Source: an uncultured archaeon (GTDB lineage: Archaea > Asgardarchaeota > Heimdallarchaeia > Heimdallarchaeales > Heimdallarchaeaceae). Taken from it: a DNA stretch of 11,149 nt. A program made the translations under genes and the position numbers. The first letter of the stretch is position 1; every line of letters starts with the position of its first letter. The stretch is from positions 1-11,149 of the forward strand of contig CAZHRF010000069.1 of the NCBI GenBank assembly GCA_964534625.1. Reading direction: 5' to 3'. The notes under the pieces are model-generated. The model was not told the origin of the DNA and ran no database searches. It worked only from the letters and a program-made list of their open reading frames with translations. This document shows positions 6,299 to 11,149 of the stretch, one piece after another.

Positions 6299-6448
6299 AG
6301 AACAGCCACAAGATAAACTATTAAAGACGATTTAAATTAATTTCTTTAGTTATATAGTAACATAAACAAATATTCATTTGTTCTAATCTATTCTCTCATC
6401 AAGCAAAAGAAGAGATTTCATCACTAAAATTAATAATTAGCCTATCCT

Positions 6449-6946
6449 ATGAATAAAAGTTCAAGAAGCGATATATTTGATGAAAGAACTGCTCTCACCA
6501 CGCACTTATTACAACTTGGAGGACAAATTCATGCTATTGGAGTTACACTTATTGTTGTTGAATATTCCAATAAAGCAGAAAAGTTTGCGAGATCTTTCCC
6601 AGTAAAATATCTTAGACGTTGGTCTATACTTGCTTTATCTGTTTTCGTTTTACAAATATTCGAACTCTTTCCTCGATGGATTATTACACTTTTATTGTCT
6701 AGTTTATTCAGCGTGGAGATTAATCTTTTGCATCATGGAGTTATTAATAATGTTCTTTTAATTATCCCCATTGCAATATTTGTTGTTTTATGCTATGATT
6801 TGCTTTTATGGCTCTGGTCAAAAATAGACTTCATTTGCTCTTTAGAATGGATAATTATCAACTTCCAATCGCTAATTGTTCAAAGGAAGTCCTATAGGCT
6901 TAACTATGATATGTTTGGAAATATAGAATGGATCAAGCTAAAATGA
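6449..6946 (+). CDS. Hypothetical membrane protein, possibly part of an eroded longer gene
   Basis: 165-aa ORF with hydrophobic stretches. Protein-like sequence continues in shifted frames to ~7130. Confidence 0.4.
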   Translation: MNKSSRSDIFDERTALTTHLLQLGGQIHAIGVTLIVVEYSNKAEKFARSFPVKYLRRWSILALSVFVLQIFELFPRWIITLLLSSLFSVEINLLHHGVINNVLLIIPIAIFVVLCYDLLLWLWSKIDFICSLEWIIINFQSLIVQRKSYRLNYDMFGNIEWIKLK

Positions 6947-7192
6947 ACACAAGATGCTTTTTATGTCGTTATTCTTTTGGTTGCTTTCTGCATTATCTAG
7001 GAATTTTCAGAATGAGATCTGTATGCTGATAAAATTGCTTTAGCAATAAAGCAAAAGGCAGCTGGTAATTATTTAATACCAGAAGATAAGAAAATAAGGG
7101 TTATTTTCGTTATGTTTATATACTATATAGATAGATAGATAAACATTTATTACTATAAATAAATTAGTTGTTATGCCCTTGCATACTAACTA

Positions 7193-8080
7193 ATGGTGAT
7201 AAAAATGTTCTGCGATAATTGTGGTATAAAAATTAAAAAAATGGGCAAATTTTGTCAACATTGTGGTCATAAATTAAAACTTGACCAAACTAGAGATCAA
7301 TCTGAAGCAACTAATCCTCCTCCTCGTTGCACAAATCAATCACTAAATTATAACCAAAACAAACCACAAAAAGCAAATTATCCTGCTCAATTGTATTCAC
7401 CTCATCTTTACCGACACACAACTCCAACAGGAGACAAAATTAAAAGTGCTTATATCCAAGCTATCCATTTTATCCTCTCTTCAGCTATTTATTCTCTTAT
7501 TAACATAATTCTATTGATTATAGGAACAAAGCTTCTTTTTGAAAATTACTTATTGGGAGGACTACTAATTTTCTTAACACTTTTGTTTTGGCCAGTTGGT
7601 TCTATAGCAGCTTTATTATATGCTGCATCACGTGGTATAGGAAAAAACCCATTAGACTTCATAGAAGCATATAAAACAGCCCTCAAATTGATTGGTGAGG
7701 TGATATTATCTTTACTAATAGGATTTGGAATCGCTTTTGTAGTTGGAATATTTGGGTTCTTTATACTTTTGATTGAACCAATTGTTGGTTCTTTGTTATT
7801 AATAGGATCTTTCTTAATCTATGTTATCACATTGATAATGGTGCTTTTTTATGTAATAGAATTTATAAACACGATGGAAAGAAAAGAAAGTGAACCGCAT
7901 TCAACTCTTTATTCTAAAAATATGAATTGGAACGGATTTCAAGAAATAGTGAGAATACATACAAAAAAGGCTACTAGATATCCAGCTGATAAAGGGCAAG
8001 ATAAAAAGAAAATATGTCCTGATTGTGGAGAAGAAATTGGAGAGTTTACTTCTTATTGCACTAAATGTGAAAATAGATGA
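7193..8080 (+). CDS. Zinc-ribbon membrane protein (N- and C-terminal CxxC pairs, ~4 TM)
   Basis: FCDNCG...FCQHCG at the N-terminus, Pro/Gln/Asn-rich linker, hydrophobic core, CPDCG...YCTKC at the C-terminus. Confidence 0.85.
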   Translation: MVIKMFCDNCGIKIKKMGKFCQHCGHKLKLDQTRDQSEATNPPPRCTNQSLNYNQNKPQKANYPAQLYSPHLYRHTTPTGDKIKSAYIQAIHFILSSAIYSLINIILLIIGTKLLFENYLLGGLLIFLTLLFWPVGSIAALLYAASRGIGKNPLDFIEAYKTALKLIGEVILSLLIGFGIAFVVGIFGFFILLIEPIVGSLLLIGSFLIYVITLIMVLFYVIEFINTMERKESEPHSTLYSKNMNWNGFQEIVRIHTKKATRYPADKGQDKKKICPDCGEEIGEFTSYCTKCENR

Positions 8081-8200
8081 ACTACCACTACCTAAAGGCA
8101 GATGGTTTCCTGCTTCATCAAAGTAGCCTTAAACAGCTGAGGTCTTATTTTTTCTCAACAAGCGTCGTCTGTAGTTCCTGTCGTTCCGACAATACATTAT
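8078..8200 (-). ncRNA. Putative TnpB omegaRNA (reRNA) scaffold
   Basis: Lies between the tnpB stop and the right end. The terminal hairpin has a G-U pair only on the minus strand. The 5' boundary is uncertain and may extend into tnpB. Confidence 0.55.
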
Positions 8201-8310
8201 ATTGATACACTAGATCCTTCAAGGACTCTACATTCCTCAGAGTACAAGTTACTTGAAGCCTTAACATCTCCGTCATGAACTGTACCACATGTTGGACACT
8301 CCCAGTCCCC
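8197..8310 (-). pseudogene. tnpB: tnpB C-terminal fragment (zinc finger/RuvC-III region), degenerate
   Basis: Translates as GDWECPTCGTVHDGDVKASSNLYSEECRVLEGSSVSI*, compared with the TnpB pattern WxCPxCGxxHDRDxNAAxNI. Confidence 0.8.
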
Positions 8311-8321
8311 TTTAGAGTGTA

Positions 8322-8341
8322 TTTTTCATTAGTACTTCCGA
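8322..8341 (+). repeat. Solo copy of the MITE left end
   Basis: TTTTTCATTAGTACTTCCGA matches 173-192 at 19/20. 8331-8341 is the exact reverse complement of 276-286. Confidence 0.6.
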
Positions 8342-8377
8342 TAGTTTTAAGAAAAAATAAACTGTTTTTTAAATAAC

Positions 8378-9727
8378 ATGAACTGGCTTGACCAAACTAA
8401 AAATTTACTGATTGAATTGATTCAGTCAGAACCGGTTAACCCTACATCTAATGAAGAAAAAGCTGCTAAATTAGTTTATAGTCTCTTGAAAAAACATAAT
8501 ATTGAAGCAGAGCTTTTACATAAAGAAGGACATGATAAACGATTAAATGTTGTAGCTAAACTACCGGGTAAAGATCCTCATGCTGCTAAACTTGCTTTAC
8601 TTGGGCACTTAGATGTAGTTCCTGCTGGAAATCCCAGTAATTGGAAGCATCCCCCTTTCGCGGGAATTGAAGCTGATGGTTGTATTTGGGGAAGAGGGGC
8701 TTTGGATTGTCTTGTTACCGTCGCTTCAGAAGTTATAGCCTTGATTAGACTCAAAGAAGAAGGTTTTCAACCTGAAGGTGACATTATTCTTATCTGCGAA
8801 GCGGATGAAGAAGAAGGAGCGCAATATGGAGCGGAATTTCTTACAAAAGAACACTGGGATCTAGTAGGTGCGGATTATCTCATTAATGAAGGTGGAGGAA
8901 TCCCCATAAAGACAACTGAAAATAAGACACAATATGTCTTTAGTAATGCAGAAAAGGGGCCGTTTTGGATGGATATTAAAATAAAAGGTTCACCTGGACA
9001 TGCATCGGTACCAAATAATAAAAAAAATACCCTTGTCAAAGCAGCCAAGATTATTAATAATATCAGTAAATATACTGCTAAAATTAGAATAACACAAAAC
9101 TATAAGGAGTTTATAGAAGCTTATGGGCTTCCTAAAGTATTAGGCAATAAATATGTATTTTCTGTCATTTATCCTTTATTAAAAATGATCATGCCTGATA
9201 AAGCTGCATTTATTAACGCTATGGTGAGACAAACGTTCAGTCCAACGATGATAAAAGGGGGAGAAAAAGCCAATATTATTCCCGATGAAATTGAATTAAC
9301 AGTGGATTCACGTATAGTACCAGAACAAACTTTTGAAGAAGCAAAAGAAGAGCTTGAAAGAGCTATTGGCAAAAAATATCTTAAAGATGTATTTATTCAA
9401 CCTAAATTACAATCCGAGGGTTCAATAAGCACATTCAATAGTCCTTTAACACACAGTATTCAACAGACAATGAAAAATTTAGATCCTCAAGCAGAATTGG
9501 TACCATTTATACTATCGGGAACGACTGATTCGAGATATTGGAGAGAAAAAGGTAGTATGGCCTATGGATTTGCACCTGTTACAGCTTTTCTTCCTGGAAA
9601 TGAAATAGCGAATCTTGCACATAATAATAATGAACGAATAAGTATTGATTCAATTGAAATGATGCATGAGTTTATGTATCAAGCTGCAAAAAACTTTCAA
9701 TCAGAACAACATGAAAAAATAATTTAG
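8378..9727 (+). CDS. M20/M25/M40 family metallopeptidase/amidohydrolase (ArgE/DapE-like)
   Basis: LLGHLDVVP, IWGRGALD, EADEEEG, NEGG, GSPGHAS, GTTDSR and AHNNNERI motifs. Confidence 0.93.
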   Translation: MNWLDQTKNLLIELIQSEPVNPTSNEEKAAKLVYSLLKKHNIEAELLHKEGHDKRLNVVAKLPGKDPHAAKLALLGHLDVVPAGNPSNWKHPPFAGIEADGCIWGRGALDCLVTVASEVIALIRLKEEGFQPEGDIILICEADEEEGAQYGAEFLTKEHWDLVGADYLINEGGGIPIKTTENKTQYVFSNAEKGPFWMDIKIKGSPGHASVPNNKKNTLVKAAKIINNISKYTAKIRITQNYKEFIEAYGLPKVLGNKYVFSVIYPLLKMIMPDKAAFINAMVRQTFSPTMIKGGEKANIIPDEIELTVDSRIVPEQTFEEAKEELERAIGKKYLKDVFIQPKLQSEGSISTFNSPLTHSIQQTMKNLDPQAELVPFILSGTTDSRYWREKGSMAYGFAPVTAFLPGNEIANLAHNNNERISIDSIEMMHEFMYQAAKNFQSEQHEKII

Positions 9728-9752
9728 ATTGAAGAATTTCGAATCTTTAATC

Positions 9753-9773
9753 TTTTTTCTTTTAAATTTTTTT
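9753..9773 (+). terminator. Oligo-T terminator candidate after the M20 gene
   Basis: TTTTTTCTTTTAAATTTTTTT about 25 nt after the stop. Confidence 0.4.
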
Positions 9774-9777
9774 CTTA

Positions 9778-10027
9778 GTAAATTTGTTATCACGGGCATC
9801 CCTCACTGGAATAGGCACTAATTCGTTTTTTAGGCTCTCAGGGTGTGCTGGGCTTTACGGAATATAATAGTACGTAGTGTAAATCTCAGATTTACTAAAA
9901 GGGCAAAATAAGAGATAGAATGACCCGATACGTCTAAGGTGTGGAGAATAATTAACTTTAGGCACTATTGCGCGAAGGGCTAAGGGGATGAAGAAGAAAT
10001 GAAGACGTCAAAACTTTCTTCACTAAT
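9778..10027. repeat. 250-bp structured non-coding element, copy 1
   Basis: Direct repeat of 10885-11135 with 6 substitutions and 1 indel. Confidence 0.95.
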
Positions 10028-10261
10028 GTTTAAAATATAGCTAAAGTTAGTATTTAAATGAATCATGAATCATTATAAGGTTAAAAATGAGTGTTACTTA
10101 CTTACAATTTTTGCTTCAAGGTCATTGTACAATCTCACTCATTAATAGTCAAATTTTAAGAAAATTCTCCGTCATTTATTTTTAGCTTTTTAATCAATCA
10201 GTTCTCCATTAAATTCTGGTTATTGAAAAGGTTTTTTAGTCTATTTTTCTATTGTTAATCT

Positions 10262-10795
10262 ATGAAAATTTTATATATTTCAGGCAGTCCAAGAAAAAGC
10301 AGCAATACCGATTATCTGCTAAATGTACTACATTCTAAAATAAAAGGTGAGATGATTAAATTATCCGATTATAGGATCGATTCTTGTCATGCCTGTATGG
10401 ATTGCCGTGGAAAAGGCGAATGTGTCATTAAAGATGATATGCAAGAAATAATCATACCCAAGCTTCTTGAAAGTAAGGTTATTGTCCTCGGCTCACCGAT
10501 CTATTTCAATAATGTGTCTTCTCAGATGAAAGCTTTTATAGATCGAACACATTGTTTGATGGGATTGTTGAAAAATAAAATCGGAGGTGCTATAGTCGTA
10601 GGACGGCGATTTGGGGCCGAAAGTGCAATAACTGCAATCAATGCATTTTTCCTTAAACATGAAATCATTCCTAGTAATAGAGGTGTTGTTGGAATCGCAT
10701 TTAACGCAGGGGAAATTGAAAAGGATGTTGAAGCGATAAAAGATACAAAAAAACTTGGAGATCGTATCTTGAATCTCGAGAAGATTTTGGATTGA
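10262..10795 (+). CDS. Iron-sulfur flavoprotein (Isf-like; flavodoxin / NADPH-dependent FMN reductase family)
   Basis: SGSPRKSSNT FMN loop, CHACMDCRGKGEC (CX2CX2CX5C) and GSPIYF...QMKAFIDR. Confidence 0.92.
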   Translation: MKILYISGSPRKSSNTDYLLNVLHSKIKGEMIKLSDYRIDSCHACMDCRGKGECVIKDDMQEIIIPKLLESKVIVLGSPIYFNNVSSQMKAFIDRTHCLMGLLKNKIGGAIVVGRRFGAESAITAINAFFLKHEIIPSNRGVVGIAFNAGEIEKDVEAIKDTKKLGDRILNLEKILD

Positions 10796-10854
10796 TAAAT
10801 TCTGACTAAAAAGAATCCACAATCAAATCAGATATTGACTGTAATCTTCGAATT

Positions 10855-10884
10855 TAATACATAATACATAATACATATACATAT
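10855..10884. repeat. Short tandem repeat (TAATACA)x3 + TATACA + TAT
   Basis: Read directly from the sequence. It abuts the start of repeat copy 2. Confidence 0.8.
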
Positions 10885-11135
10885 GTAAATTTGTTATGAC
10901 GGGCATCCCTCACTGGAATAGGCGCTAATTCGTTTTTTAGGCTCTCAGGGTGTGCTGGGCTTTACGGAATATAATAGTGCGCAGTGTAAATCTCAGATTT
11001 ACTAAAAGGGCAAAATAAGAGATAGAATGACCCGATACGTCTAAGGTGTGGAGAATAATTAACTTTAGGCACTATTGCGCGAAGGGCCTAAGGGGATGAA
11101 GAAGAAAGGAAGACGTCAAAACTTTTTTCACTAAT
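10885..11135. repeat. 251-bp structured non-coding element, copy 2 (candidate ncRNA or non-autonomous mobile element)
   Basis: About 41% GC by hand count, against about 24% in 10028-10260. I saw no long ORF. Several complementary segments, including paired ends. Confidence 0.95.
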
Positions 11136-11149
11136 CAATCTAAAAAAAG

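Follow-up and report, generated by a model that had tools for sequence, protein, structure and literature searches.

A foreign flavoprotein gene between two 250-bp direct repeats in a Heimdallarchaeaceae genome

Integron cassettes are short cargo genes flanked by direct repeated recombination sites, the attC sites, each an imperfect inverted repeat on the order of 60–140 nt with an R″ box (RYYYAAC) at its 5′ end and an R′ box (GTTRRRY) at its 3′ end. Miniature inverted-repeat transposable elements (MITEs), composite transposons and IS200/IS605 elements place short repeats without genes beside cargo genes, while direct repeats around an insert are also the product of illegitimate recombination with a long target duplication and of Campbell-type insertion–duplication. 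Integron gene cassettes have been reported in Archaea (Ghaly et al. 2022, PMC9668308), and integrons have been reported to be enriched in Asgard archaea (PMC9668308). Here we describe a locus of an uncultured Heimdallarchaeaceae archaeon (Asgardarchaeota; assembly GCA_964534625.1) in which a single flavoprotein gene stands between two 250-bp direct repeats, at the end of an 11,149-nt stretch of DNA (CAZHRF010000069.1, hereafter the window) that is the complete contig C69 of the metagenome-assembled genome (MAG; 3.37 Mb, 120 contigs, 32% GC, 89.8% complete). An initial annotation of the window had taken the arrangement as the possible start of a cassette array, as a composite non-autonomous element, or as a circle integrated by recombination in the element. 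We propose, with a confidence that amounts to an even chance, that repeat–flavoprotein–repeat is the scar of one gene-gain event, in which an 857-bp fragment was inserted illegitimately and 250 bp of the target spacer were duplicated.

Layout, copy number and the empty site

The locus reads, in order, M20 peptidase gene, spacer A (50 nt), R1, segment C (857 nt, with the flavoprotein gene), R2, spacer B (52 nt) and the gene p126, where R1 and R2 are the two copies of the repeat, R. Repeat finding and MAFFT alignment place R1 at positions 9778–10027 (250 nt, 39.6% GC) and R2 at 10885–11135 (251 nt, 41% GC), neither being assigned a strand. The copies are in direct orientation, 97% identical and 1107 nt apart from start to start, in agreement with the initial annotation. 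The repeat search returned the pairs 9778–9987/10885–11094 and 9977–10027/11085–11135, parted by a single 1-nt indel, and the MAFFT alignment of 250 with 251 nt gave six substitutions (R1/R2: 9791C/10898G, 9817A/10924G, 9872A/10979G, 9875T/10982C, 10000T/11108G and 10018C/11126T) and one extra C in copy 2, all at the positions previously listed. The boundaries, which had been described as sharp and the flanks as unrelated, are so: local alignment of the 50 and 89 nt upstream and of the 14 nt downstream gave p = 0.12 and p = 0.49, respectively, against shuffled sequence. A possible upstream extension of the repeat through TTCGAAT..TTAAT blocks was dropped, as the similarity is not significant. 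On the left, the native neighbor of R1 is the M20-family peptidase gene (8378–9727, plus strand; Pfam Peptidase_M20 and M20_dimer), followed directly by spacer A (9728–9777), native DNA with a hairpin and T-run that match a terminator at chance level only. On the right, spacer B starts at 11136–11149, where the window and the contig end 14 nt past copy 2, and continues for 38 nt to the ATG of p126.

This continuation comes from a public contig of the same microbial-mat study that supplied the depth data below (L069), found via the exact protein of a gene on MAG contig C119. Positions 1–225 of L069rc are 100% identical to window positions 10925–11149, positions 226–586 (361 nt) have no counterpart in the MAG, and positions 587–2141 are contig C119 (1.6 kb). 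Spacer B is L069rc 212–263 and the p126 ATG lies at 264, so that R2 is followed by 52 nt and then by p126, a 120-aa gene named after its 126-aa homolog in the sister species. The assembly can be corrected accordingly: C69 and C119 (reversed) are adjacent, and the 361-nt gap between them holds the p126 gene that is missing from the MAG.

Copy number was read from Logan assemblies (k = 31) of four runs of one microbial-mat study, probably the source of the MAG itself. Contig breaks in these assemblies fall exactly where 31-mers cease to be unique: one contig ends at 9847 and carries the 5′ variants of R1, a 163-nt contig holds the shared core of R, a further contig spans 9951–10954 with the 3′ variants of R1, segment C and the 5′ variants of R2, and another runs from 11058 to 1.9 kb past the end of the window. 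In the mat contigs, the same copy-specific variants as in the MAG are joined to M20 on one side, to the DNA downstream on the other and, in between, to the flavoprotein segment at both its ends. The shared core has 1.63–1.68 times the depth of the flanks in the four runs, where 1.74 is expected for two copies with one popped bubble and more than 2.5 for three copies, and segment C has 0.94–0.99 times the flank depth in all four samples. These values fit exactly two copies of R and one copy of the cargo at the locus, and neither blastn at word size 7 nor nhmmer --max found a third copy of R in the MAG.

It is hardly credible, in our view, that the arrangement is an assembly artifact or an episome, that is, a chromosome with one R into which the assembler threaded a segment C that belongs to another strain or to a 1.1-kb circle of its own. 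The k = 31 contigs do leave the 5′ and 3′ variants of R without linkage across its 104-nt core, and the middle variants are phased in one way by Logan contig L029 and in another by L069 and the MAG. The MAG contig, however, passes through R1 into C and through R2 into B, and although the four samples differ greatly in abundance, C keeps to within 6% of the depth of either flank in each of them, as a minority strain or an independent replicon would be unlikely to do. It is on the MAG contig and the constant 1:1 depth that we base the integrated arrangement.

The site without the insert is seen in a sister species, represented by a 6.4-kb Logan contig from a different study (L067), our sole outgroup. 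This contig is colinear with the window across the Ras gene, the region of a 165-aa open reading frame (ORF) and M20, and its last gene is the one that matches MAG contig C119, by which L069 was found. M20 shares 82.5% nucleotide and 85% protein identity with L067 2077–3468, and p126 shares 82.7% nucleotide identity with L067 3625–4000. In the sister, M20 and p126 are 188 nt apart, separated by a spacer of 24% GC without a flavoprotein gene. Spacer A aligns to positions 1–50 of this spacer and B to positions 112–188, so that 61 nt in L067 occupy the exact place of the 1358-nt R–C–R block; a block in B just upstream of p126 is conserved between the two and is probably the p126 promoter. R itself was undetected in L067 by blastn and by cmsearch with filters off. 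The initial annotation had proposed looking in relatives for an empty site with one copy of R and no flavoprotein: the site without the flavoprotein is there, and a single copy of R is not recognizable in it. Neither of the outcomes that the annotation had set against its own reading, M20 and the flavoprotein in repeat-free synteny in relatives or long-read proof of an assembly artifact, came about.

The 61-mer of the sister can nevertheless be aligned with R, weakly but colinearly and from end to end. AAATTTG..ATCA corresponds to the first 15 nt of R, with ATCC.TCA nearby, and ACTAAAT to its last 7 nt, while internally GTGTTGATGAATAATTTACT agrees with R positions 162–180 at 17/20 (pattern GTGTKGA.GAATAATTWACT). 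The anchored alignment scores above 98.7% of alignments to dinucleotide-shuffled R (p = 0.013), above 97.8% of those with a shuffled 61-mer (p = 0.022) and above 95.7% of those with random genomic 250-mers (p = 0.043). We take this as moderate evidence, about twice as probable as not, that R is the local spacer of this lineage, in which case the spacer would be enlarged relative to that of the sister by about 124 and 67 nt, or that of the sister would have shrunk. Four internal copies of a TTTAGGCACTAAT-like motif inside R fit a spacer that grows by local duplication, and if R is local spacer, the ends of the repeats are breakpoints of a duplication rather than ends of an element.

The base composition of R can be read differently. 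Its GC content, 40–41%, compares with 16–24% in the adjoining noncoding DNA and 35–36% in the neighboring genes, and places it between about the 20th and the 31st rank among 510 ORF-free stretches (top 4–6%). R might be as foreign as C, with R–C–R having arrived as one piece, a stretch of 1.23 units of a 1107-bp circular or tandem DNA (a multimer or rolling-circle product of a small circle with the flavoprotein gene, for example), and having been joined into the spacer while about 60 nt of native DNA were lost; the repeats would then simply end where the captured fragment ended. Consistent with this are the absence of a recognizable relative of R from the sister species (blastn, cmsearch), the 40% GC of R against the 16–24% of native spacers, the short matches at both ends of R, which could be joining microhomologies, and a looser homology test that was not significant. 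Foreign DNA would not be expected to give the internal match of 20 nt or the anchored alignment with the sister spacer from end to end (p = 0.013–0.043), R lies beside none of the flavoprotein homologs examined (L050–L059), and no way is known for a 1.1-kb circle that lacks a replication gene to form multimers. We consider import in one piece fairly unlikely.

Origin of the flavoprotein gene

The cargo gene (10262–10795, plus strand) is intact and encodes a 177-aa protein of FMN_red/flavodoxin fold (Pfam FMN_red, E = 1.9e-22), with a C-x2-C-x2-C-x5-C motif that presumably resembles that of the iron–sulfur flavoproteins of anaerobes. Noncoding gaps of 234 and 89 nt separate it from the repeats: the 5′ part of segment C (10028–10261) has 24% GC and, like segment C as a whole, matches nothing else in the MAG or in L067, and the 3′ part (10796–10884) ends in an ATACATA-type microsatellite. 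In the microsatellite, which occupies 10840–10884 just before R2, samples differ in length by one 7-nt unit at 10855, present in runs X1 and X2 and omitted in X3 and X4.

Among 30 genomes of the family, the best identity of the protein to own-family paralogs is 42%, while metagenomic proteins reach 72–78%, and a large protein collection holds dozens of proteins at 60–78% identity from metagenomes, Firmicutes, Lokiarchaeota, Chloroflexi, Bipolaricaulota and others. A quick maximum-likelihood tree splits the window protein from 15 own-family paralogs by a very long branch with 100% support and makes it sister (support 93) to a group with a Firmicutes protein and the homologs P0002 and P0006, which are 75–76% identical to it and are encoded on the JGI metagenome contigs L055 and L056. 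There, the flavoprotein gene stands among toxin–antitoxin cassettes with HicB, ParE/antitoxin, Gp49/HTH and HigB genes, all on one strand and parted by a recurring site of the attC type, about 100 nt long, nearly the same each time and with an ...ATAAC...GTTAT... core. By this arrangement the two contigs carry an attC cassette array, without an integrase on either; the DNA similarity of the window to both is confined to the coding region. Membership of a cassette-borne family speaks to the history of the gene rather than to the present locus.

As judged from these sequence relationships, the flavoprotein gene is foreign and horizontally acquired, because its product is at most 42% identical to own-family paralogs and 72–78% identical to metagenomic proteins, and falls in a separate clade with 100% support. 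The phylogeny that the initial annotation had called for as a test of transfer thus places the gene outside the own-family paralogs, beside the cassette-borne P0002 and P0006. The idea underlying that annotation, that insertion of the flavoprotein gene left the repeats, gains support from the empty site and from this phylogeny.

As for its neighbor, p126 is a conserved single-copy gene of the family, found in 23 of 30 genomes, and its neighborhoods in other genera show no synteny with M20, a flavoprotein or an epimerase, save for a flavoprotein paralog in G002. That genome belongs to the nearest other genus, and its p126 faces, head to head, a family-type FMN_red paralog with 36–39% identity to the window flavoprotein (G002:C336:2667–3550, L077); a family-type paralog of this kind is absent from the MAG studied here. 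The occurrence of flavoproteins of different subfamilies beside p126 in two genera, in different orientations, may be coincidence or reflect a functional link.

Tests of the repeat as element, cassette site or RNA

Searches with R found no relative. Rfam gave nothing at gathering score and only chance matches at E values up to 10, and blastn against 60 relatives only chance matches of 28–32 nt. A covariance model of R1, run on 46 genomes of the order and 150 of the phylum (about 200 Asgard genomes), produced no credible homolog, its single match, in G177, being discarded on the grounds that it lies inside a 412-aa ORF. An exact 23-mer of R is absent from genome and metagenome contig collections, 16- and 18-mers occur in viral contigs at estimated chance numbers and without a model match, and phage and plasmid collections gave no match. 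With tblastx against the MAG nothing scored below E = 0.37, so that an origin of R from a pseudogene is not shown. Both copies are noncoding: a 22-aa ORF at 9843–9911 was rejected as a real gene, two synonymous differences being too few to support it and a convincing start codon or ribosome-binding site being absent.

The ends of R, GTAAATTTG... and ...CACTAAT, are not inverted copies of each other, no flank is duplicated, and the left flanks, ...TCTTA at R1 and ...CATAT at R2, share no motif. Terminal complementary boxes, GTTATSACG...CGTCAAAAC, read GTT...AAC on either strand. A crude scan of positions 9600–11149, which did recover the sites in the control contigs L055 and L056, found no attC-like site. 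The tyrosine recombinase family PF00589 has no match in the MAG, 89.8% complete as noted, whereas 14 of 14 control genomes, including four archaea, matched. There is no tRNA at the locus that could serve as an attachment site. The MAG holds 11 TnpB-type loci, and R resembles none of them nor the rest of the MAG. As to the claim that no recombinase, transposase or reverse transcriptase gene lies in the window, the part on reverse transcriptase stands, whereas the minus strand at 8197–8325 encodes the decayed C-terminal tail of a TnpB-type nuclease (...CPTCGTVHDGDVKAS...; Pfam Cas12f1-like_TNB, E = 1.3e-4, below cut-off).

With these results, the first two readings of the initial annotation lose their ground. 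Against the start of a cassette array, R2 is followed by p126 on L069, depth gives two copies of R and one cargo, and no further R, attC site or tyrosine recombinase was found. Against a composite non-autonomous mobile element, R has no terminal inverted repeats, target-site duplication or target motif, only two copies and no relative. R was likewise rejected as an attC site, at 250 nt, with GTT...AAC polarity, an empty attC scan and no tyrosine recombinase in the MAG; as a MITE, composite DDE transposon, IS200/IS605 derivative or stand-alone TnpB guide RNA, with neither inverted ends, target duplication, flank motif or other copies nor similarity to a TnpB locus; as the template/variable repeat pair of a diversity-generating retroelement, its differences not being adenine-specific, both copies noncoding and no reverse transcriptase in the window; and as a known RNA, for want of an Rfam match.

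More generally, R could be a recombination site or end of some mobile system, such as an array of cassettes parted by long sites, a composite element built from two non-autonomous copies or an IS200/IS605 derivative. The cargo family is cassette-borne elsewhere, integrons are reported to be enriched in Asgard archaea (PMC9668308), and TnpB genes occur in the MAG, with a TnpB tail 1.4 kb upstream. Set against this are a single cargo with only two copies of R, the GTT...AAC order, which is the reverse of attC polarity, together with a 250-nt length and an empty attC scan, a MAG in which no tyrosine recombinase was found, the lack of inverted ends, of a target duplication and of a common left-flank motif, and the dissimilarity of R to other MAG sequence, TnpB loci included. 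We hold such a system to be highly improbable. A bolder variant, which we would call speculative and very improbable, makes R the long folded site of an undescribed cassette system of the Heimdall group that works without an integron integrase: a 1.1-kb circle of R and the flavoprotein gene would have inserted at a resident R between M20 and p126 and could leave again, and the GC-rich core absent from the sister would be the functional part.

R could also be a functional element, a lineage-specific structured noncoding RNA or a regulatory leader, with R1 serving the flavoprotein gene and R2 serving p126. It is GC-rich among ORF-free stretches (top 4–6%), helices can be drawn that close its ends, with G–U pairs on the plus strand only, and six of the seven differences between the copies lie outside RNAalifold pairs, the other turning G–C into G–U, although this placement is biased by the way in which the structure was derived; in addition, the pair of changes at 9872/9875 turns the palindrome TACGTA into TGCGCA. 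Yet the folding energy is no better than that of shuffled sequence (z = +0.66 on the plus strand, −0.53 on the minus strand), the gain in stability of copy 2 over randomly mutated versions of copy 1 is not significant (p = 0.065), Rfam has no match even at E = 10, and the covariance model returned nothing credible from the order (46 genomes) or the phylum (150). The sister species, moreover, has p126 without R, the likely promoter block conserved with L067 is in B and not in R, and two near-identical copies cannot show covariation. On balance, a functional role for R is quite improbable.

The palindrome involves the only clustered differences between R1 and R2 (9872 and 9875 versus 10979 and 10982). 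Both changes are synonymous in the 22-aa ORF at 9843–9911, and in copy 2 they create complementarity to GCACTA/TGCGC at R positions 185–197.

Route of insertion and comparison with known systems

The window further encodes a DNA methylase, a MASE3 histidine kinase, a glyoxalase, an MFS transporter, a Ras GTPase, the 165-aa ORF and a zinc-ribbon protein, ahead of the M20 peptidase and the flavoprotein. The MASE3 kinase and the Ras-family GTPase are in keeping with a Heimdall-group Asgard archaeon. Relative to L067, this neighborhood is a rearrangement hotspot and generally unstable, as judged by alignment of the two. Between window positions 6299–8377 and L067 202–2118, the MAG lacks about 860 nt of an upstream 447-aa gene, of which the ORF at 6449–6946 is the C-terminal third only (full paralogs lie on C10, C71 and C4), and has gained about 1.4 kb comprising the zinc-ribbon gene (7193–8080) and the TnpB tail, which sits between that gene and M20. 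Downstream, a remnant of 51 nt (C119/L068 1364–1414; L069rc 755–805), with 92% identity to the 3′ end, is all that the MAG retains of the L067 epimerase gene; about 1 kb of that gene is deleted, and no ortholog was found elsewhere in the MAG. These several illegitimate rearrangements relative to L067 count in favor of illegitimate insertion at the flavoprotein site.

In the scheme that we propose, the ancestor would have had M20 and p126 separated by a short spacer A–R–B. Illegitimate (nonhomologous or template-switch) repair would then have inserted C, a foreign 857-bp fragment with an FMN-reductase/flavodoxin-type gene of a type carried elsewhere as an integron cassette. About 250 bp of the target would have been duplicated on both sides, as if R had been doubled in tandem and C caught at the joint, to yield A–R1–C–R2–B; capture may have occurred during repair of staggered breaks or by template switching during replication. 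R1 and R2 would since have diverged by 2.8%, and as M20 differs from that of L067 by 17.5% at the nucleotide level, the event would fall well after the species split. Layout, copy number, the empty site in the sister species and the foreign origin of the gene are established, whereas that R is target DNA, and that repair of this kind joined the fragment, we infer.

Several points weigh against this account. In the looser homology test, which kept A and B in place, p was 0.08, and equally good scores were reached by AT-rich pieces of C. The homology between R and the sister spacer is weak and comes from one outgroup only. R has 250 nt and 40% GC where the sister has 61 nt in a spacer of 24% GC, so that about 190 nt of R lack a counterpart. 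Microhomology at the two junctions is not demonstrable without the donor sequence. Finally, the identical core of 104 nt is too long for k = 31 contigs to phase the 5′ with the 3′ variants of R, and only the MAG contig and the constant depth ratio exclude a 1:1 mixture of a free 1.1-kb circle and a chromosome that carries one R.

The third reading of the initial annotation, a circle integrated by recombination in the element, fares better than the other two: the A–R–C–R–B layout fits it, while the resident R that it needs is unrecognizable in the sister species. In its explicit form, a 1.1-kb circle of R′ and C, looped out of a close strain for example, would have undergone one homologous or site-specific crossover with a resident R to give R–C–R, reversibly. 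A–R–C–R–B with native A and B is the exact product of a single crossover, the 97% identity of the copies suits a donor strain of the same species, and the direct repeats are long enough for homologous recombination. Such integration presupposes, on the other hand, an earlier genome with C next to R and leaves the first formation of that neighborhood unexplained; no empty-site or circle form is visible in the mat contigs, where C and its flanks are of equal depth in four samples and neither joints nor loose ends occur, rare circles being something that contigs cannot show; and no recombinase was found. We regard integration of a circle as unlikely and prefer illegitimate insertion over a circle crossover because it needs neither an earlier R–C neighborhood nor a recombinase. 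A 1.1-kb circle could still be released if R1 recombined homologously with R2, but there is no sign that the locus is designed for such release.

Taken alone, the locus is a clear but ordinary case of horizontal gene gain, in our reading a footprint of illegitimate recombination, and not a new mobile element or array. Its value lies in letting one follow the gain of a foreign gene by an Asgard archaeon: the site can be seen both without and with the insert, the two junctions are visible as well, and so is the probable kind of source, a flavoprotein family that circulates as integron cassettes.

Compared with integron cassettes, the locus shares one short cargo gene whose nearest relatives are cassette-borne (L055, L056) and that is flanked by direct repeated sites; it differs in that R is 250 nt long, reads GTT...AAC rather than AAC...GTT, shows no attC-like fold, encloses a single cassette with gaps of 234 and 89 nt, and occurs in a MAG without an integrase. 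With MITEs, composite transposons and IS200/IS605 elements it has in common short gene-less repeats beside a cargo gene in a TnpB-bearing genome, but R has no inverted ends, target-site duplication, insertion motif, other genomic copies or similarity to TnpB loci. Campbell-type insertion–duplication gives the same product, A–R–C–R–B with direct repeats, reversible by recombination between them; here, in contrast, neither a circle nor an empty-site allele nor a donor in which R adjoins C came to light, and how such a circle would first have arisen is unexplained. The fourth comparison is with capture by illegitimate recombination with a long target duplication. The target origin of R is weakly supported (p = 0.01–0.04), and R is much longer and more GC-rich than the corresponding stretch of the outgroup, but the likeness extends to a foreign segment lying between direct copies, a few hundred bases long, of probably local DNA, with sharp ends, neither a recombinase nor inverted ends, and an empty site in a relative.

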